Assembly: GCA_019058275.1 (NCBI GenBank)
Contig: JAHLVW010000059.1
Coordinates: 1 to 64,000 of the forward strand
Reading direction: 5' to 3'
Length of the DNA: 64,000 bases
Source of the DNA: Candidatus Heimdallarchaeota archaeon
Lineage (GTDB): Archaea; Asgardarchaeota; Heimdallarchaeia; JABLTI01
The position numbers were made by a program, and so were the translations under genes. The notes beneath the pieces are model-generated. The model ran no database searches. It was given only the letters and a program-made list of their open reading frames with translations, and was not told the DNA's origin. This document shows, piece after piece, positions 1-16,779 of the stretch. Positions within the stretch are counted from its first letter, which is position 1; each line of letters opens with the position of its first letter.

Positions 1-1085
1 CATGAAATGTTAATTATATGTACAATATTTGGAATATTCATTCCCAATTCTAGCAAAGATGTTGCAAATAAAAACCTGATAGTGCCATTATAAATTCCTT
101 TTAGTATGCTTGTTTTTTCTTTGTTGTTTAATTGACTGTTAATGCAAGCAAATGGTGAATGTATTTTTAGAATTTCATCTGGAATATTTGTTTTTTTCTT
201 TAGCAATTCATTGCATTTTGCAACCAACTCACCTACCTTTCGAATATCATCAACAAAGATAACACAAACTCCTTTTACCTTACGCAAGTAGGGATCTATT
301 TTTTCTAAAAGTAGATCTTCTATTGATTCTGGCTGTAGGAGCATTACCCTTACGGAACCTCTTGTAGCATTTCCTGTAATAATTTGGGCAGAAGGAAGAA
401 ATTTATCACGAAAAGTCTCGACTTCTTTTACAGTAGCAGAAGCTAGAATAACTCTTAGCTTAGGATTAATTCTTTTAAAGATAGCAATTATTTCACGAAC
501 ATGAGCAAGATACCCACCTGAACCTGCATGAATTTCATCAACAACAAAAGCACCAGCATTTAACAACCAATCTAAAAAATCATTATTGCTTTCTTTAAAG
601 AAACGATAAAATAGTTTGTCAATCGTTGCTAGAATAATATTAGGTTTGCTCTTTTCTATGAATTCAATTTCCTTTCGTTTTAAATCACCATTGTATCTGC
701 TGTAGGTAATTTTTTTTCCTGTTGCTTCATGAATTTTATTGCAATATTTGGCAATTCGTTTTTCTTGGTCCTCTGCTAATTGCTTAGTTGGATAGATAAT
801 AATAGCACAGTTAATCTTACCATTAATGACCTCCTCCAAAATCGGGAATAAAAATGCTTCAGATTTACCTGAACCTGTTCCGACTGCAAGGAAGCAATCA
901 TTTCCTTTAAGTACAGTTCCAATGGCTTCTAATTGATAAGAGTAAAGCTTATTTGGAAATATTTCTTGAATACTTTTGCCAATTTCCTTTAATCCTACTT
1001 CATCACTACCTATATAATAATCTGATACATAACACTTCGATGGTGGTAAATCAAAAACTGATTTCACGAGTGCTCCATTAGACAT
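1..1085 (-). CDS. SF2 DEAD/DEAH-box helicase (Hrq1/SftH/Lhr-like), 3' end runs off the window
   Basis: Not in the ORF track; translated by hand from ATG 1085: MSNGALVKSV...LYSYQLEAI (Q motif), AVGTGSGKS (Walker A), IYPTKQLAEDQ (Ia), VVDEIH (II), LASAT (III), ATSLLELGMNI (V). Open to position 1. Confidence 0.9.
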   Translation of the reverse strand, partial: MSNGALVKSVFDLPPSKCYVSDYYIGSDEVGLKEIGKSIQEIFPNKLYSYQLEAIGTVLKGNDCFLAVGTGSGKSEAFLFPILEEVINGKINCAIIIYPTKQLAEDQEKRIAKYCNKIHEATGKKITYSRYNGDLKRKEIEFIEKSKPNIILATIDKLFYRFFKESNNDFLDWLLNAGAFVVDEIHAGSGGYLAHVREIIAIFKRINPKLRVILASATVKEVETFRDKFLPSAQIITGNATRGSVRVMLLQPESIEDLLLEKIDPYLRKVKGVCVIFVDDIRKVGELVAKCNELLKKKTNIPDEILKIHSPFACINSQLNNKEKTSILKGIYNGTIRFLFATSLLELGMNIPNIVHIINIS

Positions 1086-1088
1086 TTC

Positions 1089-1640
1089 TTATCCCACCAC
1101 TATTCTTGCTCCAACAATGTATTCCCAAATTGAATTAAGCTTGCCCTTCAGATATAGCTCGAATTTCTCATCAAAATCCATTGGTGAATACTTCTCAACA
1201 ATTTCATCAATTACTGATTCAATCATTTCAAATTGCTCATTCACTTCAATAAATTCCAATTGACCAAGCAATTCCTTGATTTCTTTCTGAAGGAGCTCTT
1301 CTTGTTTCTTTATCTCAGAATTTCTCAGAAAATTGTCTGCTATTTCATCAAGCTTCTTATAATCAAATAGCAACTCAGAAGGAAATTCTTTTCCTTTAAT
1401 CAAACAATTATATAGCTTGTTTAGATGAGCCAAAGATTCTTCTTTTATTCCATATCTATATTGATTTTTTCTTCCCAGACGCCAAATCAGCTTGTCTTTT
1501 TGCAATGCCTTGAGTGTAAGATATGTTTCACTGAGAGGTAAGTTTACCTCTATAGAGATCTCTTTTGCGCTCTTAGGATGAATTGCGCCTAACTCATTAT
1601 AATCCTTAAGTAAAAAGAGCATTACTCCAAATTTATCCAT
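1089..1640 (-). CDS. Winged-helix DNA-binding protein with helical C-terminus
   Basis: SAKEISIEVNLPLSETYLTLKALQKDKLIWRLGRKNQYRYGI has wHTH spacing. Overlaps the upstream stop and ends 3 nt before the helicase start. Confidence 0.6.
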   Translation of the reverse strand: MDKFGVMLFLLKDYNELGAIHPKSAKEISIEVNLPLSETYLTLKALQKDKLIWRLGRKNQYRYGIKEESLAHLNKLYNCLIKGKEFPSELLFDYKKLDEIADNFLRNSEIKKQEELLQKEIKELLGQLEFIEVNEQFEMIESVIDEIVEKYSPMDFDEKFELYLKGKLNSIWEYIVGARIVVG

Positions 1641-3118
1641 GATACAGGTAGCTCCAATAATGTTTCACTATATTCTTTAGTAATTGGTGATAATTGACCG
1701 ATTTTTTTGCCATGTTTTAGAAGGTGCTTATCTTCTCTATCAGTAAATAAGAATGCAAGTTTCTCAAAATTAGCAATTTCATGGTTTACCCTTTGATCTA
1801 TATGTTTTGATCTCATCCAAACCAATGGTTGAAAGTCAAGTTTTTGGATTTCCTCTTGACAGATTTGAAAAGTACATTCACCTAAGTCATCCCTTACTTT
1901 TGCTGGCAAATATTCCCATTCTAACATTAACCGCCAAAGTTTAACCGCAAAATTATTCCCCAAGTCTGAACCTCTGATAAGCAGATGTTCCTCTTCTAAC
2001 CTATCACCAATATTCGATAACAAAAGATCAAATTCATCAATTTCTTCCCTGCAAGCATCTCTAAAAGAGGAATAATGTTTTCCTCTATGATAACATGAGC
2101 TTTCGAAAAGTTCTTCCTTCTTCTCATAAAGGATATCGCATCCAAATCTTGAAACGATATAAAGATTCTCTCCTTTGAAACCTCTTAATCGATCAACTTC
2201 ATCTCGAGTAATTTCTTCAGCTAATATTGCATCGACCAGTTTAGTGTGCCCTGCTTTCTTTAAGGAATCGCAAAGATCTAATGGCAATCCCATCCAAGAA
2301 AGGTCTGAATAATAACTGAAATGAGAAAATCCACCAACTCCTAAATAGTTAATATTTTTCTCTTCAAGAAGCTTCCACATTTCTTCCTCATAGAACTGGT
2401 ATGTTGTATTAAATAAGGCATCTGCAGATGTTCGAGCCATACTATTATAATTTCCTACCATGCGTTTTAGTTGGTAGAGTCTGTCAGAAATACGATGGCT
2501 TATTTTAAAATTAAATGGTTCTATCAGCTTGTTAGTAAATTTCCAGAGAATTTCTGCTACAAGACCTTCTGCTGAATTGCATAGCATGTTTGCATGACTA
2601 TGATAACCATAGAGATGTGCATCTCCAATTTTATCTACATACTTTTGTAACGCTCTTTGTTCAGGTATCATTCCTTGCAAGGTAAAAATTATACTAAGAT
2701 CACTTTTTATTGCTGATTTTAAGTAAAGATTGTTGAATCCATTGCTTAATCTTATTGCATCAACATAAATTGCTCTCCTGGGTTCTATTCTTTCGACATT
2801 AAACCAACTGCTTAAGTGAGTTTTTCGTTCATAATAACAACCATGGTCAAGTAATCTTTGTTTTATCTCTTCTTGAATACCTGCATAATCATAGATGAAT
2901 TTAATATCTTCTAGTTTATATCTAATATCTCCAATAAAGAGATCATCATTGATTATTCTTACATCATATCCTTGATATATTGTTATGCCTAAATTAGTTC
3001 TTGCTTTTTCTATCTCTTCAACTCCCAAGCCTGTTAACTGATATATCTGGTCATAAAGTATATGACTGCTATCTTTTATGCATTTTACATATTGTTTTTT
3101 GGTATTTTTTTTATTCAT
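1622..3118 (-). CDS. cas1: Highly diverged Cas1/casposase-like integrase (solo, no CRISPR)
   Basis: Cas1-like N-terminal beta domain (YDVRIINDDLFIGDIRYKLEDIKFI...LLDHG), then NSAEGLVAEILW (E184), SADALFNTTY (cf. DPvNAlLNYgY), GGFSH (H266), LPLDLCDSLK (D281/D284, cf. LvyDLmEpfR) and C-terminal DFQP, in Cas1 order and spacing. Confidence 0.72.
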   Translation of the reverse strand: MNKKNTKKQYVKCIKDSSHILYDQIYQLTGLGVEEIEKARTNLGITIYQGYDVRIINDDLFIGDIRYKLEDIKFIYDYAGIQEEIKQRLLDHGCYYERKTHLSSWFNVERIEPRRAIYVDAIRLSNGFNNLYLKSAIKSDLSIIFTLQGMIPEQRALQKYVDKIGDAHLYGYHSHANMLCNSAEGLVAEILWKFTNKLIEPFNFKISHRISDRLYQLKRMVGNYNSMARTSADALFNTTYQFYEEEMWKLLEEKNINYLGVGGFSHFSYYSDLSWMGLPLDLCDSLKKAGHTKLVDAILAEEITRDEVDRLRGFKGENLYIVSRFGCDILYEKKEELFESSCYHRGKHYSSFRDACREEIDEFDLLLSNIGDRLEEEHLLIRGSDLGNNFAVKLWRLMLEWEYLPAKVRDDLGECTFQICQEEIQKLDFQPLVWMRSKHIDQRVNHEIANFEKLAFLFTDREDKHLLKHGKKIGQLSPITKEYSETLLELPVSWINLE

Positions 3119-3144
3119 TTTTATCTCTCAACTAGTTAATTTAA

Positions 3145-5251
3145 TCAATTTCTCTCCTGTACTAGCTTAAATGCTGAGCCGCATCTTGAGCAACGTGTTT
3201 GAATTGATCCTTGCTGAGGAAACGCAGCATTGCCTAATGCCTTTAGTGGGACCTTTTCTTTACGTTCACTGCAGAATGGGCAAAAATGTGTGAATTCTTC
3301 CTCCCCGTCTGCTGAATAACCATCAAATCTTTTAGGCACTATTTTATTGAATTCATCAATGGTGAAATGGATCTCTAAAATATCTGCCTTTAGAAATGCC
3401 TCGCAAGCAACAGTATTTTTTCTAAGAATCGAGGTTGAAATATAGCCCATTTTGTCTTTTGGAACCTTTCGCTCTGCAGTATCTCTCACTTCTCGCCAAA
3501 AATTGCAGCAGTTTTTATTGAAATGGGTAGCAGTTGCCACATTTCTCAAAGAAATGCTTTGGGATTTCTTTTGTTGAATAGTATGTAACGCTTCTCCCAA
3601 TTGGTGGTTTTACTGTAATAGTGTTTAGTGATAATGAACTGTTTTTTTCAAGATTATCCAATGCTAGTTCAACATCTGAATTCAGTAATGAGAGGTTGAG
3701 AGCAATTTGTGTTCTAGTTAATGGTTGTGTTGCATATTCTAGTTCTTCCTTTATTGCTTGCTCGATAGCTAATCTATCTTTCTTTCCAACTAATGGTTCA
3801 TCTAATATTTCGAGATTTTGAACTATTGCTTTGCTAATGAGAGTGAAGTTCTTTTTAGCTCCTGGTGACATTTGGTCTTGAAAACTTACTAATAATCTAT
3901 AAACTTTAAAAACGGAATAGCTATCTTGTGTTCGTGAAAGAATTTTAGCAATTGTTTCTTCTTCATCATTCTTTTTTGTTTTTAGTCTTCCAAGCAGTAT
4001 TTGTAGATCATTGTAAGCTAATCTTCCATCAGTAAAATTATGAAATATTTCTGAAATAATGTTCCAATCTATAATATCATTTTGTGTTCTGTTTTTGATA
4101 TCTAATAATACGCCAATTGGATCTTCTTGTATTTCTTTGAAATATGTCGATGCTATAAGGAATTTCTTGCCAAATGTGGTAAGAGTATATTTTCCTGAAT
4201 TTCCATTGGCTCTCAAAACTAAAGCGAATTTTCCTAGACTTTGTTGGCACAATTCAAATAAACATTCAGAGGAATATGTTGATTTAAATAATTCCTCAAA
4301 TAAAATTTCTTGAAGAAATTCTGGATTGGTTCTTGACTCGTGAGTATTTTGAAGCAAACGATAGTTAGCTGAATTTTGTATTCGTTTCGTTAATTGTTTT
4401 TTAGTAGGATGACCTGAATAAAGTCTTAGTAACATAGAATATGGGAGAACATATCGCAGATTTTCTTTAATAGAATGTCTATCCATATAAGAACTAAAAT
4501 CAAGCTCATGATCTCCCGTAATTTTAGCTGTTGTTGTTACCTTTAGCATGCTCTTCTGTTCATCTAAAGAAACTATTCCAGGAGAGATATAATGCATTCT
4601 AATGTTTAAGTTATTCATTCTTCTCTTAAAAAACAATATCCCATCTATATCAAAAGTTGTGAAACTCTCTGTAGCTCTTCTTAGAGATCTGTTTTCACCA
4701 AAAGGATCAACAAAAATATACGCATTGGTAAGTGGTAAAGTAACTCTGTTCTTTAATTCTACTACGGAACTTTTCCGATAGAGTAAATTTCGAAGAAGGT
4801 TATCATAGCTTGTAATTATTATACAGTCATTAGCTGAAGGATAACTGTTTCCTTTGAATTTTGAAAAAGTGGAAGCAACACGAATAGCATATTTATCTAT
4901 TGGAGGAGAAATAGTTTCATTTGTTAAGTCATCACTGGAAAAGTTATTCTTTTGATGTGGATTGAGTATGTTGTATATTTTTCTTGCTTCAGCAGAAGTT
5001 CGAACCACAATTAATGATGAAGTATTGACAAAACGAGCATTCAGAAGAGCTAAAGTAACAGCAATTTGCAATTGCTCATCTAGATCTGGTGTTGCAAAAA
5101 GCAAGTCTTCTCTGCAATTAACAGCTTTTCGAATACTTTCTTTGTCAATGTTTGAAGGAAATGGAAAATCTCGCAGAACTGTAGTAATAGCTTTAGGTAG
5201 AGCATTTATGAATCCCAAGTTAATCCCCCTTATTATCTTGTAGAAAATCAT
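3145..5251 (-). CDS. Probable single ~700-aa gene split by a +1 frameshift at ~3525: inactivated Hel308/Ski2-like helicase domain, winged helix, wHTH, Cys cluster, Zn ribbon
   Basis: Track ORFs 3515..5251 and 3145..3600 overlap. Removing one C from TACCCAT gives CGNCYHFNKNCCNFW. The N-terminus follows the SF2 RecA1 layout with degenerate motifs (ATPDLDEQ for Walker A, IIITSYDNL, IFVDP for DExH). C-terminal CPFC...CSRC. Confidence 0.55.
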
Positions 5252-5852
5252 TTAGTGTAGGAATTTTAGTTACGCTTGTTCCTTCGCTGAATACTCTAAT
5301 TATGGACTTAAAAGAGTCTTTGATTTCATCTTTTGAAGAGTCTGATAAATCAAAGTTATCAGTTAATTCATTCAGCAAATCTTCTCGAAGGTCTGATAAA
5401 TAATCGTCCTTTGACTTTAAACAATCTAAAATTGACTGAAGATGCTCTTTAACATCTTGTAACTTCTCAATTCTTGTGGAATCTACCTTATGTTTTTGAG
5501 TTAAAGAAACTTCATGATGAGGTTGGAATAAACTCATTATAAACCTGAATAATGGATTATTGACTTTAACTCGATAAGATTGAGTATTTGATCGTGGAAG
5601 CTTTATTAAAATGCCAAATTCTATAAAAGATAAAACTAAACGATCTATTGTTCTAGAAGATAAGGATAATTTTTCATCGAATTTGAAAGTGTTTAATGAA
5701 GGATAATAATATCTACCATGTTTTATAGCGCTGTTAAATAAGTATTTGCAGAAAATTTTCACCAAGTTTGTAATTTTAACCCTTACACTTGGCAATTCCT
5801 TGTAAATGTCCTTTTCTTGAGCTATTGATGATTCCGAAGACATTATTCTCAT
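5220..5852 (-). CDS. Hypothetical protein with probable wHTH; first gene of the Cas1 operon
   Basis: LSLSSRTIDRLVLSFIEFGILIKLPRSNTQSYRV resembles a wHTH recognition helix plus wing; overlaps the next gene. Confidence 0.5.
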   Translation of the reverse strand: MRIMSSESSIAQEKDIYKELPSVRVKITNLVKIFCKYLFNSAIKHGRYYYPSLNTFKFDEKLSLSSRTIDRLVLSFIEFGILIKLPRSNTQSYRVKVNNPLFRFIMSLFQPHHEVSLTQKHKVDSTRIEKLQDVKEHLQSILDCLKSKDDYLSDLREDLLNELTDNFDLSDSSKDEIKDSFKSIIRVFSEGTSVTKIPTLNDFLQDNKGD

Positions 5853-6163
5853 ACTCTTTCTATCAAGTTTTGTTTAAAAAGCGCTAAATTCGTCAGAAAA
5901 CAGAAAGAAAAATGAATTATGAGGATTAAAATCATCAAAAACCAGAAACAAGATTATGAAGAATATGAAGCATTCGCCAATAGACAAAAAGGCTCAAAAA
6001 ATCAGTCAAAAAAGAAGGCAGGAGAAGGCTTCTTTTTATATAGCGGAAGGTTACTTTAAGTCCCTTTAGAATTAACAAAATGATGTAATTTTGTATTTTT
6101 TACTGTTTTTTTGTTTTTTTTCTGTAGAGGTACTCACAAACAATTTATCTTCTTTGTTTCTCT

Positions 6164-6243
6164 CTGAAGCTCGTGTCGAAGACGACTGTAAAAGGAGGTC
6201 TCCACGAAGTGGAGGAAATAGGTCGCACGAGGGGAGCGTTCAG
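6164..6243 (+). other. GC-rich nested hairpin cluster with cGAAg triloops
   Basis: CTGAA(6164-68)/TTCAG(6239-43), CTCGTG(6170-75)/CACGAG(6226-31), CTCCAC-GAA-GTGGAG(6200-14) and GTC-GAA-GAC(6175-83) in otherwise very AT-rich DNA. Confidence 0.6.
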
Positions 6244-6356
6244 TGACTGAGAAGGATGGAATAGGAAATAGTTACACTTTCAGATTTTGAGGGTAATTCT
6301 AAAGTCTTCTTTCTGCTCAACATTTCGGAATTGCTCTTCAAATCTCTAAATTATTT

Positions 6357-7970
6357 CTATTCTTTTTTAATTCGAAAGAATGTTGTTATATATTGATAGA
6401 GAACTGAATTTTGTAGTTGGTTATTTGTTACTTTCACACCAAAATAGTCACTAAGTGTTTTGTGTAAGTCAGTCTTTTTTTCAGCCGGTTGTTTAATAAG
6501 TAGATACCTTCTTCTTATTGCTAAGTTTTTTACTAGATTCAACAATTTCTCATTTGGTTGCAAATCTAATCGTGCCATAGCTTTTCGAGAACGAAAATAC
6601 TCTAATTTATTTTCAACTAGAAACTGCATTAATTGTTCAGAGGTATTTAGTAATTTTGGTAAGAGTTTTACTAGAAGAGGAAGGGGAAAACTATTACGTC
6701 TTTCATAAGCTGCTAAATGTCCTTTAGGTATAGTTAGAAAGTCTGCGAGCTCTTGTTGAGTCCACGACCAAATCTTCCGGACTGTTCTCATGAATTCTGT
6801 ACAATTATTAACATTTAGATTAGGGATGAGTGCAAAATTAAAATAAGATTCACCATTTAGCGTAATGATGGTTTCAAGATTGATATTATCAATTCGGTAC
6901 TTGTTTGGATCTTCAATTAAATGAAGCCTTTTTTTAGAAAGATATCGATGATATTCCTTTCGTTTTAGGGGGTGTCTTGGGTGCAAAAACTTGCTTAGAA
7001 GATCTTTAGAAGTTGCTTTAATATCTAATGAATAACTAGTGCCAAATTCAGTATTGATAGTTCGAGTGGAATATTTTATGTTATAGTTAGTGAGGACTTT
7101 TACAAATTCCTTAACAAAAAACTTAGAAGAAGAGCAGAAATTAACGTTGTTCTTATAACTGCCATCTGCATCTAAAACACCACTCCAAAACTCCCATCGC
7201 AGTTTTTCATCTGAAACAAAAATGAGAGGTTCTCGTAATGCATGGTATTTTTTACCGGTAATAGGTTGATCAGTTAAGAAATTGACCAATCGTACAAGCC
7301 ATTTATTGTTTAAGTGAAGCAACCAGACATTTTTCTCTCCAGTAATTGATCCCTCAAGACTAAAAAGAGACATTGCTAGTGCTTGTAGCATGAGTATATG
7401 TTCTTGTGAGAAATCAACCAATTCAATATTATGATAATTGAGATGACCATCACCAATAACAATTCCGAGGAAATAAGCTAAATCATCTATCAGTTTTGTA
7501 GGCATGCGAAATTGTTCTCCACGAGCAGATTGGAAAGGAACATGATCTTGGCTGAGGAAATCTTGCCAGAAATCACACAACCGGAAAAGAGGAAAAGGTA
7601 ATCGTTGTTGATTCTCTGTATAATCAATGATTTTTTGCTGCCATTTCTTGATAGAGTAATCAATAGCTGTATCTTGGAAATAATAATGGCATCTCTCAGC
7701 TACCTTCAGTGACTGTTTGCGTAAATTGAGCGCTAAATTAGATGGAAGAGAAATATAAGGCAACCGCTGAAGCTGTCGCTTTCCTGCAAGAAAGTCGTGC
7801 TTGCGAACCATAATGGTATAAAGGTTAAGGATGTTTGGTTTAAGGAATATCTTTGATTGTTTGTGCTGTTCTATTAGTTTGTTTGCTGTCAGCCAATCAT
7901 TTTCCTTTGTTGGATTTGAATCTATAAGCAATGGATCCTTTGACCAGTGGAGATGAGTGGTAATTTTCAT
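6357..7970 (-). CDS. Free-standing double-motif LAGLIDADG endonuclease with C-terminal XRE-type HTH
   Basis: LAYFLGIVIGDG and EFWSGVLDADGS motifs; WSWTQQELADFLTIPKGHLAAYER HTH; GGAGGA SD upstream; no intein splice residues. Confidence 0.8.
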   Translation of the reverse strand: MKITTHLHWSKDPLLIDSNPTKENDWLTANKLIEQHKQSKIFLKPNILNLYTIMVRKHDFLAGKRQLQRLPYISLPSNLALNLRKQSLKVAERCHYYFQDTAIDYSIKKWQQKIIDYTENQQRLPFPLFRLCDFWQDFLSQDHVPFQSARGEQFRMPTKLIDDLAYFLGIVIGDGHLNYHNIELVDFSQEHILMLQALAMSLFSLEGSITGEKNVWLLHLNNKWLVRLVNFLTDQPITGKKYHALREPLIFVSDEKLRWEFWSGVLDADGSYKNNVNFCSSSKFFVKEFVKVLTNYNIKYSTRTINTEFGTSYSLDIKATSKDLLSKFLHPRHPLKRKEYHRYLSKKRLHLIEDPNKYRIDNINLETIITLNGESYFNFALIPNLNVNNCTEFMRTVRKIWSWTQQELADFLTIPKGHLAAYERRNSFPLPLLVKLLPKLLNTSEQLMQFLVENKLEYFRSRKAMARLDLQPNEKLLNLVKNLAIRRRYLLIKQPAEKKTDLHKTLSDYFGVKVTNNQLQNSVLYQYITTFFRIKKE

Positions 7971-8031
7971 GTCCTCCTAGGAATTAGTTAGGGATTTCAA
8001 TTCTTAAATACCTCTTTGTACAACCATTGAA

Positions 8032-9781
8032 ATAGCTAATTGTTTAACTATTTTTTTAAATTAAAAATTATTTTTTCTAGTATATAATTAATACTTTCGG
8101 TATACTCCTTAGAAAATAGCTATATATCTAGCTGTATATATATTTTGTTGAAGAAAAATGCCCCGAAAAGAGAACCTACTCATCAAAAGCTACCAATTCA
8201 AGTTGCCAAAAGACGAACGTTTGGTTGGTTTCCAAGAACTCACAATAACAGCAGCGAAAAAACTACTCGAAAAACTCTGGTCAAAAGAATGGCTCTTGAA
8301 ACTTGGAACGGGTGACCTCAAAGCCTACAAGATCATCAACGAAGTACAAGTAGAACTAGAAGGCATTTACTTCCCATCTAGAGTTTGAAGGGGAATAGCA
8401 GAATGGGCAGGACGAATAATTAGAGGGCAATACAAACGTTTCTGTTGCTTTAAAGACTGCCTTGAAATAATCAATTGGTTGGGTGAAACATCGAGTAAAG
8501 CAAAATTAGTAGCTGCAGTAATGAAACATTGCCGAGAGACAATAAAAACAAAGAAAGGCAAAAGGACCTATGCACGATACAAGAAAATCATGGTGGAGCA
8601 AACAATAACGATGATTACTAAATGGCTGAAGCAATTGCCTAATATCTTTGAGCTGTTCGCTTACACTGATTTCGTGAAACCAAAAATAAAACGATTCGCT
8701 TTTCCTTTTGGACCAGATGAGGGGAACGCAATACAATACTTCTCTAACAAGGAAAAAGTCCACATTAAAATGAAGCTACCAACTTGTACAAAGCCAAGAA
8801 GCAGAAAAGACTGGGAGTGGATAGAGCAAGAACTAACTACCCCAACAAAAATACGAGCAAAAATAGAGCTAGCTTTATCACTGCAACCTAAAAATCCGAC
8901 CCTGAGAAATCAAAAGCTCAAAGGAGGACTAACCCATTTCTTCCTCCAGTTTCCATGGGAATACCCAAAAACAAGAAAAAAAGAAGAGAATGGTCAAGTA
9001 TTAGCAGTTGACCTTGGCCTGAAAAAAGTCGCGACAATAGTTATATTCGAGAACGGCAAACAAATCTCACATCCGATCACAATCAAGCTCAAAGGCTCGC
9101 AGTATCGCCACGTCGAACGGATTTATAATCAAATCGTTGGTATTCAAAAGCAGCTTGCAAAAGAAAAGAAAGGTAAGCAAACAAAGAGGAGTAAGAATAA
9201 AAGAAGAGGAAAGAAGAAGGCTCTACCAAAAGAGAAATCGTCTGGGAGAGGAATTAGCACATAATTCGACAAGTATCTTGATACTGTTAGCTCTCGAGTG
9301 GTCTTGCTCGAAAATAGTCATAGAAGATCTTCGCTCGTTCAAACCACCAAGAGGTAGGAGAAGCTGGTCAAGAAGACTCTCACAATGGCTGAGAGGAAGA
9401 ATAGCATTCCTTCTAGAATACAAGTGCAAAGAAGCAGGACTAACGCTTTTAAAAGTCTGCCCATGGAATACTTCAAGTCATTGCCCACGCTGCACAGCAA
9501 AGGGAGTGAAAGTTAAGGGACCAAACAATTTGGTCGCTGATAAGAAAGGTCGCTGGTTCCACTGCCCAGAATGCGGTTTTACAGCAGATCGCGACTATAT
9601 CGCAGCTGTGAATATTTACCGAGCAAGCTTTATCGATTATAAAAAAATTAAATGTCTCAAAGACACCAGTCCCGTGCCCTATATGGACCCGGGAACCCTC
9701 TGCTCAACTGTTCCTAGCGGGGGACTAGAGATGAACCATAACGGACTCGTTATGGTAACTGGGAATAGATAAATATTTCAA
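8032..9781 (+). mobile_element. Non-autonomous tnpB-only (IS1341-like) element; boundaries tentative
   Basis: Visibly higher GC than flanks; perfect subterminal hairpin ACCATAACG-GACT-CGTTATGGT (9735-9756) followed by TTCAA (9777-81); TTGAA at 8027-31 as candidate left target motif; no tnpA. Confidence 0.5.
8158..9772 (+). pseudogene. tnpB: TnpB (IS200/IS605-family RNA-guided nuclease, long ~540-aa type), disrupted
   Basis: RuvC-I VLAVDLG, RuvC-II IVIEDL, Zn finger CPRC...CPEC, RuvC-III DRDYIAAVNI. In-frame TGA at 8386-8388 and a frameshift in the A-rich tract at ~9160-9190 join three track ORFs. Confidence 0.88.
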
Positions 9782-9806
9782 TGATTTTGTCCATAAAAGA
9801 AGGAAC

Positions 9807-9882
9807 GGTTCGCTCTAACCTTAAGCTTTACAGAGATAATGGATTCTCCATTCTATGATGTAAAATGAGTCAAGGGCGAACC
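9807..9882. repeat. ~76-nt imperfect palindrome / long hairpin
   Basis: GGTTCGCTCT(9807-16)/AGGGCGAACC(9873-82), inner TTTACA/TGTAAA, apical AATGGA-TTC-TCCATT. Confidence 0.6.
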
Positions 9883-9888
9883 TACAAT

Positions 9889-10608
9889 TTACACAAGTTC
9901 TTTTGCTTTTGAGATATTCATATCTATGATATCTTTTGCATTTGGATTGATCTCAAATCCAACATATTTTCTATTTAATTTAATGCATGCAACAGCGGTT
10001 GTGCCATTCCCCATAAAGGGATCGAGAACTAAATCATTTTCTTTACTTGAGTACTTTAGAAGTTTTTCAACTAATTCGTTTGGTAATTTAGTGGAGTTTT
10101 TCTTTTCACCTGGAAGGTATTCACGCTTGATTTCCCAAACATCTTCCGGATAATGATCAACCTTATTGAAGAAATATTTCTTTGGATTTTTCACTAAAAA
10201 CAAGATATGATAGTGACTCGTAACAAATTTCCTTTTTGTAAAAACACCAAATTGGTACTTCCATATGATATGATTTTGTGTTGTAAAACCAGCTTCATCT
10301 ATAGCAATCAAAATATCCTTCAAATTTGTCCAACCTGAGATAATGTAAGCACTACCTGTTTCTTTCAGTACAGGATAAATTGCTTTTATCCATCCTTTAG
10401 AGAATTCAAAGTAATCCTCTCGAGTTATTTCACTATAGCCCTTTACAACAAACTCACTTTTTCTGTTGTACTGGCTACCTTTACCATCAAAACTTATACC
10501 AAAAGGAGGATCAGCAATAATGAGGTCTATGGAATTCTCATCTATTCTTTTGGAGATATTTTCTATACAGTCCTCATAATAGATAACATCGAATACCATA
10601 AGCTTCAA
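9889..10608 (-). CDS. Orphan beta-class N4/N6 DNA methyltransferase
   Basis: IIADPPF (motif IV) near the N-terminus, VLDPFMGNGTT (motif I) near the C-terminus. Confidence 0.9.
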   Translation of the reverse strand: MKLMVFDVIYYEDCIENISKRIDENSIDLIIADPPFGISFDGKGSQYNRKSEFVVKGYSEITREDYFEFSKGWIKAIYPVLKETGSAYIISGWTNLKDILIAIDEAGFTTQNHIIWKYQFGVFTKRKFVTSHYHILFLVKNPKKYFFNKVDHYPEDVWEIKREYLPGEKKNSTKLPNELVEKLLKYSSKENDLVLDPFMGNGTTAVACIKLNRKYVGFEINPNAKDIIDMNISKAKELV

Positions 10609-10823
10609 ACCTAGTAAGATTGGATAGTTTTTCTTAAAATGGTTAATATTAAGGTGAGTACATAATACTTTCGATTATCTCTCTACTTGTAACTATTATT
10701 TTTGTTTAGAGAAGTTCTTCTCTTAATTGTCAGGTAAATATCAAATTAAAGATAAGACTTTAGTTAAGTCTATCAACAAACAGCTTAACTTCATGATAAA
10801 TTTGATTTATATAACATAACCTA

Positions 10824-10849
10824 AAATCATGAATTAAGTGTCATGATTT
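10824..10849. promoter_or_regulatory. Inverted-repeat operator candidate upstream of uvrA
   Basis: AAATCATGA-N8-TCATGATTT just downstream of TATA-like TTTATATA (10806-13). Confidence 0.45.
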
Positions 10850-10890
10850 AAATCACCTTGTTTAGAACCAAAAAACTTGTCGAGGATTAT

Positions 10891-13800
10891 ATGGTTTTGA
10901 CAACTGAGGAAATACAAGAACATATCATTATCAAGGGTGCTAGACAACATAATCTTAAGAATGTCAACCTAGATATACCAAGGAATAAACTTGTGGTCTT
11001 AACAGGTGTATCTGGTTCTGGAAAATCTTCACTAGCGTTTGATACTATTTTTGCAGAAGGACAAAGAAGGTATATTGAATCTTTATCAGCATATGCTAGA
11101 CAATTTATGGCTCAAATGAGTAAACCAGATATTGATTCTATTGAAGGTTTATCACCAGCAGTTTCTATAAGTCAGAAAACAACCAGCTATAATCCGAGAA
11201 GTACAGTCGGAACTGTAACAGAAATTTATGATTTTATGAGAGTGTTATTTGCCAGAATAGGTATTCCTCATTGTCCTAAATGTAACATTGAGATTAAGGC
11301 TCAAACTGTAACTAATATAGTTCAACAAGTTTTGAAAGATTATTCAGGTATGGAAATCATGGTTTTATCACCCATTGTAAGAGATCGAAAAGGTGAATAC
11401 CGTAAAGAGCTCAAAGGGTTGCTTGAATCGGGTTACTCTCGAGCAAGAATCGATTTTGAAATAAAACGCTTAGATGAGATGAAAAGTGAAGAAATGGTTC
11501 TTTCACGATATTTCCGCCATACAATAGAGGCTGTTATTGATAGAATTAGTGTTGATGTAGAAGAAGAAGATCGAATCGCTGAATCAATTGAAACCGCAGT
11601 GACTCTTTCAGATGGATTAGTTATAATAACAACCTTAGAAGCTTCTCAGATAAAGAGACGTCTTACACAAGAGAAGAAGAAAACTGATGATAAAAATGAA
11701 GAGGAGTTAGAGGGAAAAATACTTGAAGAACAAATTGGTGAAATGTTATTCTCTATTCATTTAGCATGTCCTAAATGTGGACTAAGTTTTCCAAAATTAG
11801 AACCAAGAAACTTCTCGTTTAACTCAATACATGGTGCTTGTCCTGATTGTAAAGGACTTGGAACAACTATTGAAGTTGATCCAGAAATTCTAGTTGTAAG
11901 CAAGGAATTATCATTAGCTAATGGAGCGTTAGCAGATTATGATCCTAATACGAAACGATTTAGACTAGCAAATATGAGAATCAATAGGATTAAAGCTATA
12001 GCTGAGAAACTAGAATTTTCAATTGATACTCCTCTTAAAGAACTAACAGATCAACAATGGAATGATTTCTTTTATGGTCCGAAGAAACCAATAATGGTTA
12101 ATTATGAGTTCTCATGGTCGGATAAACGAGGGGGGAGAGGGAAAGGAACTGCAAAGCTAAAATTCTCAGGTTTAGGACCAATAATAATGAATCGTTTTAG
12201 GCGTACAAGCTCGCAATATATTCGAGATTTTATTCAGGAATTTAGCTCCCCTGTGAAATGTTCCAAATGTAATGGTTCAGGTTTAAAGGTTGAAAGTCGA
12301 TCAGTAGTTTTCAAAGGAAAAACTATTGCAGATTTAGCTGGTATGTCAATTACTGATTGCATAGATTTTGTAAATTCAATAAAGCTGTTTAAGAATGAGA
12401 AAAAGATTGCTGAAAATTTACTCAAAGAAATAACAATGAGACTAGAATTTCTCATCAATGTAGGATTACCTTATTTAACTTTAAGCAGAAGAGCAAACTC
12501 CTTATCAGGTGGCGAAAGTCAAAGAATAAGATTAGGGACACAAATTGGATCCAGTCTTGAAAACGTACTATATATTTTAGATGAACCAAGTATTGGATTA
12601 CACAACCGAGATAACTTGAAGCTCATAAAAACCCTTGAGAGCTTGAGAGATAAGGGAAATACTGTACTTGTTTCAGAGCATGATATTGATACAATGCTAG
12701 CTGCAGATTGGTTAATTGATATAGGACCAAAAGCAGGTAACTTTGGTGGAGAAATATTAACTGAAGGACCTCCAGAAATAATCGCTAAGCATAAGAAATC
12801 CATTACAGGGAAATATCTTTCAGGTAAAGCTAAAATTAAAACTCCAAGGAAAAGGAGAATTGGTAATGGCAAGATACTGAAAGTTTTAGGTGCTGCTGAA
12901 AACAACTTGAAAGCTATTGATGTGGAGTTTCCATTAGGACTTTTCATATGTGTTACAGGAGTAAGTGGTTCCGGTAAAAGCTCACTTGTTAGCGATGTAA
13001 TGTGGAAGACCCTTGCCAGAACCCTAAATAGAGCAAAAACTAAGCCTGGAAAACATGTGGGGATGGAAGGCACAGAGCATCTTGATAAGGTAATTGAAAT
13101 AGATCAATCACCAATAGGTTACACTCCAAGATCAGTTCCTGCGACATACACTAAAGTGTTAGATCATATAAGAGATTTTTATTCTGCATTACCCATATCC
13201 AAGGCAAGAGGGTTCAAGAAAGGTAGATTCTCTTTCAATACAAAATTAGGCAGATGTTCTGCTTGTAATGGTTTAGGATATAATAGAATAGAGATGCAAT
13301 TTTTACCTAATATCGAAGTTGAGTGTGAAATTTGTTTAGGGAAAAGATATAGTGCGGAAACTCTTGAGATTAAATATCACGATAAGAGCATTCACCAAGT
13401 ATTGGATATGACTGTTAATAATGCACTCGAATTCTTTAAGGATCATCCAAAAATCTCTACCATCCTAAAAACTATGCAAGAAGTTGGTCTAGGATATATT
13501 AAATTGGGGCAGTCCTCAACTACTTTATCAGGTGGTGAGGCACAACGAATTAAGATTTCTCGAGAGTTAAGTAAGAAAGCCACAGGAAAGACACTTTACA
13601 TTCTTGAAGAACCAACCGTAGGTTTACATTCATATGATGTGAATAATTTATTGGCTGTTCTGAATCGATTAGTAGATGCAGGAAATACAGTTGTTGTTGT
13701 TGAGCATAATTTAGATGTAATAAAGTGTGCAGATTGGATCATTGATCTTGGACCTGAGGGAGGAGAAGCAGGAGGGCAAGTAATAGCAACTGGCACACCA

Positions 13801-16779
13801 GAGAATTTAGTAAAGAATGATAACTCATACACGGGTATTGCTTTAAGAAAAGCCCTTACAGACAAATTAATTGTTGACCCAAGCACCATATCTTCGCGTG
13901 AAAAATCATTTGATAGTGTAAAGTCAAGAAACTCTATTAGTATAACTGGGGCAAGAAAGAACAACCTGAAAAATATCAATCTAAGTATACCTAAAAATAA
14001 GCTAATAGTTATAACAGGAATAAGTGGATCTGGTAAATCCTCACTAGCTCTTGATACCCTCTTTGCTGAAGGACAAAGAAGATTTATTGAATCATTATCA
14101 ACTTATGCTAGACAATTTCTAGGTACAATGGATACTACAAGTGTTGACAAGATTGAAGGATTGTCTCCAGCAATTGCTATAGGCCAGAAATCTGCAGGTA
14201 GAAACCCAAGATCAACTGTAGGTACAGTTACTGAAATTAATGATTATTTGAGATTATTATTTGCAACTGTTGGAATCGCTTATTGTCCAATTTGCAACAA
14301 GGACATAAGTCCTTTGACTTTACAAGAAATGGTAAAAAGAACTCTAAGCCTAGGTGAAGGAACTCGAATTAAGATTATTGCTCCATTGGTAAAGGAATCC
14401 CAAGGAAATTTCAAACCACTAATTAAGGAACTGATTAAGGAAGGTTTTACCCGAGTAATAATTGACAATAAGGATGAAGTTCTATTAGAAGAAATAACAT
14501 TTACAGGTAAAGGAAAAGCTGTTCTAGTTAAAGATAAACTAAATACAATAGAACTTGTTGTAGATCGTTTAGTGGTTGATAAAGATGATATTGGTCAATT
14601 ATATGATTCAATTGAGATTGCTTTGCATAAAGGTGAGGGAGTAGTTAGAATAAGTGCAAATGGAGATACTTTGTCCTTCAGTACAAGAAGAAAGTGTTTT
14701 GACTGTGGAGTAGAATTACCTGAAAAATTCACTCCAAAGATGTTTTCATTTAACACTCATGTAGGAGCATGTGACAAATGTTCAGGGTTAGGAGTGATCA
14801 AGTCAATAGATCCAAAATTATTCATAGCAGATACTAGCAAATCCATCAGGCAAGGAGCTATTGGACCAATTACTAAGAACAAAGTTGAAAGCAATTGGAT
14901 GGTATCATTGATTAAAAGTTTGGGAGATGCTTTTGGATTTACACTAGATACACCAATAAAGGACTTAACTGAGGAACAATATCAAATTCTATTTTACGGT
15001 TCAGATAAGAAATTCAAGCAAGTAAGAGATGTTAAGAGAAGAAATTATGCTTATACCTATGAGAGAGAAAGAGAGTTTCGAGGATTAATACCCATTTATG
15101 AAGGATGGTTATCTAAAACAACATCCTATTGGTGGCTTAATTGGATGGAAAAATTCGTCCGAGTTCAAGAATGTTCTAGTTGCCATGGTACAAGGTTAAA
15201 GCCAGAGTTACTAGCAATTCGTGTAGGTGGCTTAAACATTGATGAAATGACAAAGTGCTCTATCGCTGAAGCTTACAATTTCTTCGGTAATCTATCTTTT
15301 GGAGGAGCGGATCAGATTATAGCTGAAGGATTAATTGAGGAAGTACTAGATAGACTCAAGTTTCTTATTGATGTTGGACTTGATTATCTCACATTGAATA
15401 GGGAAGCTCGTACTCTCGCTGGTGGAGAAGCCCAAAGAATTAGATTAGCAAATCAGATTGGGAATAAACTCGTTGGTGTGTTATATGTTTTGGATGAACC
15501 AAGTATAGGATTACATCCAAGAGATAATCAAAGATTGATTAATACTCTAACTGAGTTGCGAGATTTAGGAAACTCTGTTATTGTAATTGAACATGACGAA
15601 GCAACAATTAGAAGTGCAGACCATATAATAGATTTAGGACCAGGTGCTGGAGTAAATGGAGGAAACATTGTTGCTCAAGGTACAATAGAAGAAATTATGG
15701 GAAGTACAAATTCAATAACTGGAAAATATCTTAGTGGAAAGGAAAACATACCAATTCCTAAGAAAAGAAGAAAAGGTCAAGAATTTTTAACTATAAAAGG
15801 AGTTAGACAAAATAACCTTAGAAGTATAACAGCAAAATTCCCACTTGGTGTCTTTAATTGTGTTACTGGTGTAAGTGGTTCTGGTAAAAGTTCACTGGTA
15901 ATAGAAACATTGTATCGTGCTTTAGCAAAAACCTATCATAGATCAAAAGCAGAAGTAGGAAAATATGATTCAATAGATGGTTTGGAAAGTCTTGACAAAG
16001 TTATTATGATTAATCAGAATCCAATTGGTCGAACACCAAGATCTAATCCAGCGACCTATACTGGTTTGTTTGATCATATAAGAGACCTATTTGCTAAACT
16101 ACCTGAAGCAAAGATGAGGGGGTTCACAAATTCACGCTTTTCATATAATAGCTCTCGAGGGAGATGCCAAATTTGTCATGGCCGTGGAACAAAAGAGATA
16201 GAGATGCTGTTCTTAAGCAATGTTGAGATTATTTGTGAAGAATGTTATGGAAGAAGATACAATCGAGAAACACTTCGAGTGAAATTTAAAGGGAAAAGCA
16301 TTGCAGATGTTCTAGAGATGACAATTGAGGATGCAATGCCATTCTTTGAAAACCAACCAAAGATTCTCAAGATTTTAGAAGTGATGGATGAAGTAGGACT
16401 TGGATATTTACAACTCGGACAATCAGCAACGACATTATCAGGAGGAGAGGCTCAAAGAGTTAAGTTAGCCTCTGAGTTATGCCGACCTCAAACAAAGAAA
16501 ACTTTGTATATTTTAGATGAACCAACTGTAGGTTTATCAGCATATGATGTCCACAAATTATTGAACATTTTGAATAAATTAGTCAATGTTGGTAACACAG
16601 TAATAATTATTGAACACAACCTTGATGTAGTGAAAAGTGCAGATTGGATCATTGATCTTGGACCTGAGGGAGGAGACAAGGGTGGACAAGTTGTTGCTAC
16701 TGGAACACCTGAACAGATAAAAAGTAATGCAAAATCAATAACAGGGCAATATCTAAATGATTATTTGCAACTAAAATAG
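10891..16779 (+). CDS. uvrA: Double-length (tandem-fused) excinuclease ABC subunit UvrA
   Basis: Two complete UvrA units: four G(V/I)SGSGKSSL Walker A motifs, four L(S/A)GGExQR signatures, CxxC Zn modules. ATG 10891 has a GAGGA SD (track start 10858). Confidence 0.95.

Follow-up and report, generated by a model that had tools for sequence, protein, structure and literature searches.

A very diverged Cas1 homologue in the core operon of a probable TnpB-bearing mobile element of Heimdallarchaeia

Introduction

CRISPR is believed to have acquired its Cas1 from a transposon, and TnpB is the ancestor of Cas12. Hence each independent mobile element that bears a Cas1 homologue is a test of the flexibility of this enzyme. 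Here we describe a locus with both proteins in a 64,000-nucleotide stretch of DNA (the window) from Candidatus Heimdallarchaeota archaeon (GenBank assembly GCA_019058275.1, contig JAHLVW010000059.1, positions 1 to 64,000 of the forward strand). The window lies at the beginning of contig C52 in an assembly of 4.1 Mb in 118 contigs that is 93% complete (genome G000; C labels denote contigs of this assembly, G labels genomes and L labels the loci compared). A preliminary description, made from the sequence alone, had proposed that an operon at window 1-5852 was a new Cas1-driven mobile element or a defence module. We find that the operon is part of a block of 11,757 bp which is probably a mobile element of one Heimdallarchaeial genus, with the operon as its conserved core and the Cas1 homologue (aCas1) as the likely strand-transfer enzyme.

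The closest described loci are those of Altae-Tran et al. 2023 (PMC10691335), who found some TnpBs, of the TnpB branches Cas1H-Asgard-1 and -2, associated with Asgard Cas1 variants, and who cite Makarova et al. 2020 (CRISPR J 3:156) for the Asgard Cas1. According to the available part of that article, repeats often flank the aCas1-TnpB locus, aCas1 probably serves as transposase in a separate family of transposons, and a hypervariable stretch followed by a GTTCACTCA motif lies downstream of tnpB in "these loci", with no frequency given. Our locus shares with them the Asgard host, an extremely diverged Cas1, the lack of Cas2 and of a CRISPR array, and a tnpB gene in the same repeat-flanked locus, since tnpB (window 8158-9772) and the aCas1 gene (window 1622-3118) lie within one insertion bounded by terminal inverted repeats (TIRs). 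The GTTCACTCA motif is absent near our tnpB, and the seven one-mismatch matches to it across the window do not exceed the number expected by chance. The available text is silent on a helicase, a metallophosphoesterase, a pseudo-helicase partner, a LAGLIDADG protein with a helix-turn-helix (HTH) domain, empty sites and miniature copies. We conclude that the locus is probably a further member of a kind already published, with added anatomy. The novelty claimed for it was set too high, and the preliminary description had itself raised the possibility of a variant of a published Asgard Cas1 locus type.

Other known systems are similar in part. Casposons are likewise TIR-bounded archaeal elements with a Cas1-family protein, and sister copies of our element at tRNA 3' ends recall those of family 2; however, here there is no family-B DNA polymerase (PolB) and no 14-15-bp duplication, and a helicase, a nuclease and TnpB stand in place of the polymerase. 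As in IS200/IS605 elements, the 3' end of tnpB lies against a terminus, no duplication is evident and there are miniature non-autonomous derivatives, but our element has inverted-repeat ends, a length of 11.8 kb and a seven-gene core, and the genome contains no Y1 or serine transposase. MrfAB and Lhr-MPE also have a DEXH helicase gene directly followed by a small binuclear metallophosphoesterase gene, a pair which in our case lies within a mobile element that also encodes a Cas1 homologue. The family described here pairs Cas1 with helicases and a nuclease, not with a polymerase or Cas2, and with TnpB in addition, which brings both CRISPR 'ancestors' into one element.

Results

An 11.8-kb insertion at a site empty in six congeners

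As the window begins inside the operon, the DNA beyond its start was read from locus L010 (GCA_050009915.1), which is 99.4% identical over window 1-13114. L010 continues with the remainder of a helicase gene (778 aa in all), a gene for a 218-aa metallophosphoesterase and then the DUF1295, TrkA_C/PhoU and MgtE genes. We compared the locus with six congeneric species (G081, G082, G083, G084, G086 and G090). In all six, the genes for UvrA2, an N6/N4-methyltransferase, DUF1295, p165 and TrkA_C/PhoU follow one another directly, and a gap of about 300 nt separates the methyltransferase gene from that for DUF1295. In the window and L010 this gap holds about 11.8 kb of extra DNA, namely tnpB, the LAGLIDADG-HTH gene, the six-gene operon and the phosphoesterase gene.

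The sequence is homologous to the empty sites as far as a hairpin that follows the methyltransferase gene, and again from about 40 nt past the phosphoesterase stop codon, so that the element runs from window 9810 to L010 15036-15061. Exactly where the homology ends lies a terminal inverted repeat on the tnpB side (window 9786-9810, minus strand AACCGTTCCTTCTTTTATGGACAAA); its partner, outside the window and after the metallophosphoesterase gene, is at L010 15036-15061 (complement of TTTGTCTATAAAAAGAAGCAACGGTT). Local alignment of the junctions gave 23 matches out of 26 between the two repeats, a score reached by none of 2000 shuffles. A generic repeat finder did not reveal these termini, which emerged only after the empty-site comparison. 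The base composition of the element could not be distinguished from that of its flanks. The unit is therefore larger than the 1-5852 first proposed, extending to window 9810 with the LAGLIDADG-HTH gene and TnpB.

The hairpin in the host flank (about 77 nt, at about window 9808-9888, minus strand) directly follows the methyltransferase gene and has a folding energy of -23.5 kcal/mol (z -2.9), with the element inserted at its 3' foot. It is present in all seven species, that is, at the six empty sites (L068-L073) as well as in the window, and three of its stem pairs change on both sides, in a compensatory manner, between G081 and G083. It has no match in Rfam.

The 498-aa protein is a diverged Cas1 homologue

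The 498-aa protein (window 1622-3118, minus strand) gave no Cas1 match against Pfam, NCBIfam or PADLOC (none to PF01867 at E ≤ 1), nor in a profile search of Protein Data Bank sequences. Its family is small, with 20 clusters among 5.8 billion proteins and six representatives among 1.8 billion (phmmer). We modelled its structure with AlphaFold 2 from 17 homologues, at a predicted local distance difference test (pLDDT) score of 69, at which loop detail is unreliable, and a predicted template modelling (pTM) score of 0.66. The top 50 Foldseek matches to this model were all Cas1 or casposase (best E 3.5e-7). VIA-align superposed it on 7mi4_A with Z 17.8 and a root mean square deviation of 3.2 Å for 245 residues, over residues 108-435 of the model, which form the catalytic domain, and casposase 6opm_B aligned over residues 50-439 with the N-terminal beta domain included. 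The model thus has the two domains of the Cas1 fold, an N-terminal beta domain and a C-terminal alpha-helical catalytic domain, at a sequence identity to casposase of around 11-14%.

When its profile was aligned by hhalign with that of 29 canonical Cas1 proteins from the same class of archaea, E was 5e-5 and the probability 67%. In this alignment AEG (E184) falls on the EG glutamate of canonical Cas1, LFN (N237) on NaLL, GGFSH (H266) on GflH, and LDLCD (D281 and D284) on LDl.E. E184, H266 and D281 are invariant in 17 of 17 homologues, and the four motifs are retained in 12 paralogs and fusions down to around 22% identity, the exceptions being an Asn at position 284 in C84 and an Asp replacing the Glu in C48. 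The only family member that attains the cut-off of Pfam Cas_Cas1, at 25.6 bits with neighbours, is a 623-aa paralog, C48:25004-26872; this gene adjoins a LAGLIDADG-HTH gene and a gene for a 720-aa NERD-type protein. Collectively these data show that the 498-aa protein is genuinely, if very distantly, related to Cas1 and has its catalytic residues conserved, and they bear out the Cas1 layout and the candidate ligands E184, H266 and D281/D284 given in the preliminary description.

The same is true of the reported lack of CRISPR and casposon genes. No cas2, array or PolB is present in the window operon, in the 8.4 kb beyond the window start or in the 21.5 kb of L010, and no DNA polymerase is encoded among all the open reading frames (ORFs) of the 11.8-kb element. 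No canonical cas operon with an array and no PolB casposon lies in this DNA just left of the window, and the locus is not fixed in all relatives. Canonical cas1 genes are found elsewhere in the genome (C26 and C76), and canonical Cas1 in only two of the ten other genomes of the genus.

Further copies share a constant core

The ends of the element were located throughout the genome by BLAST, after two loose pattern scans had proved too noisy. The end on the tnpB side is found again at eight further places (C5, C27, C45, C53, C73, C78, C88 and C117), each time at the 3' end of a tnpB gene where enough sequence is assembled, and the other end at five (C19, C45, C50 and twice in C117). Two copies consist of the two ends alone, in the manner of miniature inverted-repeat transposable elements (MITEs). 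These copies (C45:13187-13527 and C117:50576-50925) are about 340-350 bp long, are 97.3% identical and lie in unrelated loci, and as judged by their sequences they point to recent movement of a non-autonomous derivative. On one side, the two have the similar flanking sequence TGATAC.

At least four further elements of the same gene order occur in the genome (C11, C17, C27 and C50), with core proteins 22-37% identical to those of the window. They comprise tnpB, the LAGLIDADG-HTH gene, a Cas1 fusion of 1284-1376 aa (537 aa in the C11 frame), the helicase and the phosphoesterase. A second-round hidden Markov model (HMM) ties the 1284-1376-aa proteins to the 498-aa Cas1 family, and hence Cas1, helicase and phosphoesterase together belong to the core and are not cargo picked up now and then. 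In C50 tnpB stands at one end, and right after the phosphoesterase gene comes the terminal repeat of the other side.

The core also occurs, at around 80% identity, at other sites in G085, where it has a tnpB arm, and in G082, where the arm encodes MazE, a NERD nuclease and a 364-aa protein. Copies of the MazE/NERD type abut tRNA 3' ends, namely tRNA-Pro in C33 and tRNA-Ala in L012, and intron-bearing tRNA-like genes lie at the phosphoesterase end in L011 (15040-15180) and L006 (C84; 1-90). The introns of these tRNA-like genes are apparent ones, one of them within the T-loop, and ARAGORN makes no call. In L012, direct repeats of 23-30 nt of the tRNA-Ala 3' end are found about 13.9 and 14.5 kb away. 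In the tRNA-type elements the gene for the unassigned 364-aa protein (L012 1194-2288; L074 2731-3597) neighbours the distal repeat derived from the tRNA, and the protein could be a hidden integrase. Among other copies we found MazE and a NERD/Hjc-like nuclease, with VapBC genes adjoining one of them. The components constant across both types of element are the LAGLIDADG-HTH protein, Cas1 and its partner, the helicase and the phosphoesterase. The Cas1-like family was present in 11 of 400 genomes sampled from the phylum, eight of which belong to the window's genus (seven of its ten other genomes and that of the window), and its paralogs are 44-82% identical.

A putative pseudo-helicase partner, and decay of the window copy

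The gene upstream of aCas1 (window 3145-5251, minus strand) is read as two ORFs, 3515-5251 (578 aa) and 3145-3600 (151 aa), which overlap out of frame, whereas the paralogs and 16 database homologues have one protein of 675-709 aa in this position (690-709 aa in paralogs). The split results from a +1 frameshift, a 1-nt insertion near 3525 inside the C-x2-C...C cluster, and L010 has the same frameshift. A contig from run X6 (a subsurface metagenome of a different study, depth 4.5) has one base fewer at 3525, and removal of that base restores a continuous frame of 701 aa. The best matches to the model of this partner, which is a poor one (pLDDT 59), were Hel308, Brr2 and the Pol-theta helicase, all weak (E 1.5e-4, template modelling score about 0.25). 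Eight cysteines are among the invariant residues of the protein, and the Walker A G-K-T is not. On this model the protein may reasonably be taken, as a weakly tested assignment, for a Hel308-like pseudo-helicase with a Zn ribbon; the 'dead helicase' and Zn ribbon of the preliminary description hold to that extent, and what it had listed as 578- and 151-aa products is one frameshifted gene. Furthermore, partner and Cas1 domain form a single chain of 1000-1376 aa in other lineages, which argues that the two work together.

The tnpB gene of the window (8158-9772, plus strand) is a long one of about 538 codons, with matches to OrfB_IS605 and Cas12f1-like_TNB (3.6e-20), and is now a pseudogene, interrupted by an in-frame TGA (8386-8388) and by a deletion of 5 nt at 9157. 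In L010 (3343-4962) tnpB has a different stop, at 8533, despite the 99.4% identity of the two genomes. A 125-aa ORF upstream of tnpB was considered as a Y1 transposase and rejected; it is the N-terminus of the ~538-aa TnpB. With its partner gene frameshifted and its tnpB broken, this copy of the element is decaying.

Mechanism of movement and alternative explanations

The intact gene set of the element encodes TnpB, the LAGLIDADG-HTH protein, a small putative winged-helix protein, the Hel308-like Zn-ribbon protein that appears ATPase-dead, aCas1, a second putative winged-helix protein, a DEAH helicase of the MrfA/Lhr kind and a metallophosphoesterase. Of the two natures first suggested for the locus, the mobile element is strongly favoured by the empty site in six congeners, the inverted repeats at the junctions and the miniature derivatives, and a fixed defence module is disfavoured.

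No Y1 transposase (PF01797) was detected in the genome at E ≤ 10, in a search in which controls were detected, and no element ORF matched the serine, tyrosine or DDE recombinase families. We prefer aCas1 as the integrase because it is the sole constant component with known DNA-joining chemistry, and its active site is kept. As judged from the sequence comparisons its role as transposase is plausible, and we can envisage the following steps. aCas1 would join the 3'-OH ends of the element to the target in a strand transfer, with the pseudo-helicase/Zn-ribbon protein as its DNA-binding partner. The helicase and the phosphoesterase nuclease may unwind and trim the element ends, and TnpB, as in IS200/605 elements, might cut emptied sites and so lead to restoration of the element.

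Several observations weigh against this reading, which we nevertheless regard as the probable one. Integrations by casposase and by Cas1-Cas2 produce duplications of 14-15 bp or of repeat length. Comparison with the six empty sites showed no target-site duplication of 5 nt or more, with an ambiguity of at most 1-4 nt (host GAGCG^AACC). The missing duplication is a real objection to canonical Cas1 integration, and the earlier term 'Cas1-driven' is one that we can only infer. The LAGLIDADG-HTH protein is as well conserved as aCas1 and could move the element. Among the contigs assembled from sequencing runs, none spans the element or shows a circle junction or an empty site, and the contigs break within the repeated tnpB-end region. 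Finally, the disabling mutations make the window copy uninformative on present activity. LAGLIDADG-driven homing may be at work, or Cas1 in a non-canonical and perhaps single-strand reaction.

The alternative that survives best is that LAGLIDADG-HTH homing, copying assisted by TnpB or a transposase supplied in trans is what moves the element, and that the Cas1-like/helicase/phosphoesterase operon is carried along as cargo, such as a module for non-programmable defence or for DNA repair that is of use to the element or the host. We consider this a genuine possibility, though clearly the less likely one. It would account for the lack of a casposon-like target duplication, and the style of insertion, with no duplication and a T-rich short motif beside one end of the element, resembles that of IS200/605. 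Gene content also suits it: the helicase resembles defence and repair helicases such as BrxHI, DruE, Cas3, MrfA and Lhr, a pair made up of a helicase and a metallophosphoesterase after it is known from repair, and other copies have MazE and a NERD/Hjc-like nuclease, one of them with VapBC genes alongside. Furthermore, LAGLIDADG-HTH paralogs (more than 20) outnumber the Cas1-like genes. Cargo, however, is normally variable, whereas the operon is kept in every full-length element, even at 22-28% identity, with its catalytic motifs conserved. The same core is joined to either of two accessory arms, TnpB or NERD/MazE at tRNA genes, so that it is the core that is constant and not TnpB. Nor was any other recombinase found in the element, or a Y1 enzyme in the genome.

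A second alternative is a tRNA-targeting integrative element, like family 2 casposons or integrase islands, of which the window copy would be an aberrant example where Cas1 made staggered cuts and the duplication has since eroded. Sister copies do abut tRNA 3' ends (C33, L012, L011 and C84), and L012 has its direct repeats of the tRNA-Ala 3' end. No tRNA gene was found at the window copy, however, and the repeats there are inverted and not direct. The ends are common to the TnpB elements and the miniature copies, which also have no long duplications, and the 364-aa protein of the tRNA-type copies may itself be the integrase at those sites. Hence we hold this explanation to be improbable. That the operon is a fixed, non-mobile DNA-repair operon of the host, with a domesticated Cas1-like nuclease and a tnpB nearby by coincidence, is more improbable still, for although its paralogs are old, unlike the near-identical copies of a recently bursting insertion sequence, and its helicase and phosphoesterase recall the pair Lhr-MPE, six congeners have an empty site in this place, both operon and tnpB lie within the inverted repeats, C50 holds a second element with tnpB at one end and a terminal repeat after the phosphoesterase, and the family is confined to 11 of the 400 phylum genomes, mostly in one genus.

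Returning to a mobile element with aCas1 as its transposase, a bolder form of this reading can be put forward, to which we give little weight at present: aCas1, with a helicase-derived partner instead of Cas2, would act without a staggered duplication and with the help of a helicase and a phosphoesterase nuclease, in a third Cas1-based kind of DNA mobility whose core would be coupled either to TnpB or to integration at tRNA sites. If true, this would be distinct from both CRISPR spacer integration and casposons, and would occur in the closest archaeal relatives of eukaryotes. The locus supplies material for experiments in its exact ends, an empty target site, intact paralogs (C33) and natural mini-elements of 340 bp. 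Its value is tempered in that this type of locus is already in the literature and that the present copy is degenerating.

Other genes of the operon and its neighbourhood

The tightly packed minus-strand operon noted in the preliminary description is as reported, with six ORFs in window 1-5852 that overlap or lie a few nucleotides apart. Its first gene (5220-5852) encodes a 210-aa protein whose C33 orthologue has weak HTH matches and whose position is conserved. Between aCas1 and the helicase lies the gene for a 183-aa protein (1089-1640) with weak matches to TrmB (E 0.059) and to the C-terminal region of Csa3 (E 5.5e-4); it is kept in the same position in all split-type copies. The earlier winged-helix labels of the two proteins are thus backed by weak HMM matches and are best read as putative.

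At the left edge of the window are the N-terminal 361 aa of the DEAH-box (here DEIH) superfamily 2 helicase (3-1085, minus strand), cut by the contig start. The DEIH helicase of the preliminary description is borne out by the motif itself and by matches to Pfam DEAD (4.6e-29) and Helicase_C (2.3e-12), and the protein is TIGR03817/TIGR04121-like. An MZB/DUF1998 tail was matched weakly (E 0.023) in the 799-aa helicase paralog of C33, over a stretch without the cysteine cluster, and faintly in L013.

The LAGLIDADG-HTH gene (6357-7970, minus strand) encodes a protein of 537 aa with an XRE-type HTH and a match to Pfam LAGLIDADG_3 (5e-5), and is conserved beside the operon in both element types. The paralogs of this family in the genome are 27-65% identical, and some lie far from any Cas1-like gene (C70, C71, C89, C104 and C105). 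Between this gene and the operon, at window 6188-6247, where a GC-rich hairpin island had been noted earlier from the sequence alone, contigs of two metagenome runs break or have small insertions. Beyond the element, window 10858-16779 encodes a tandem-duplicated UvrA of 1973 aa, which occupies the same position in the six congeners.

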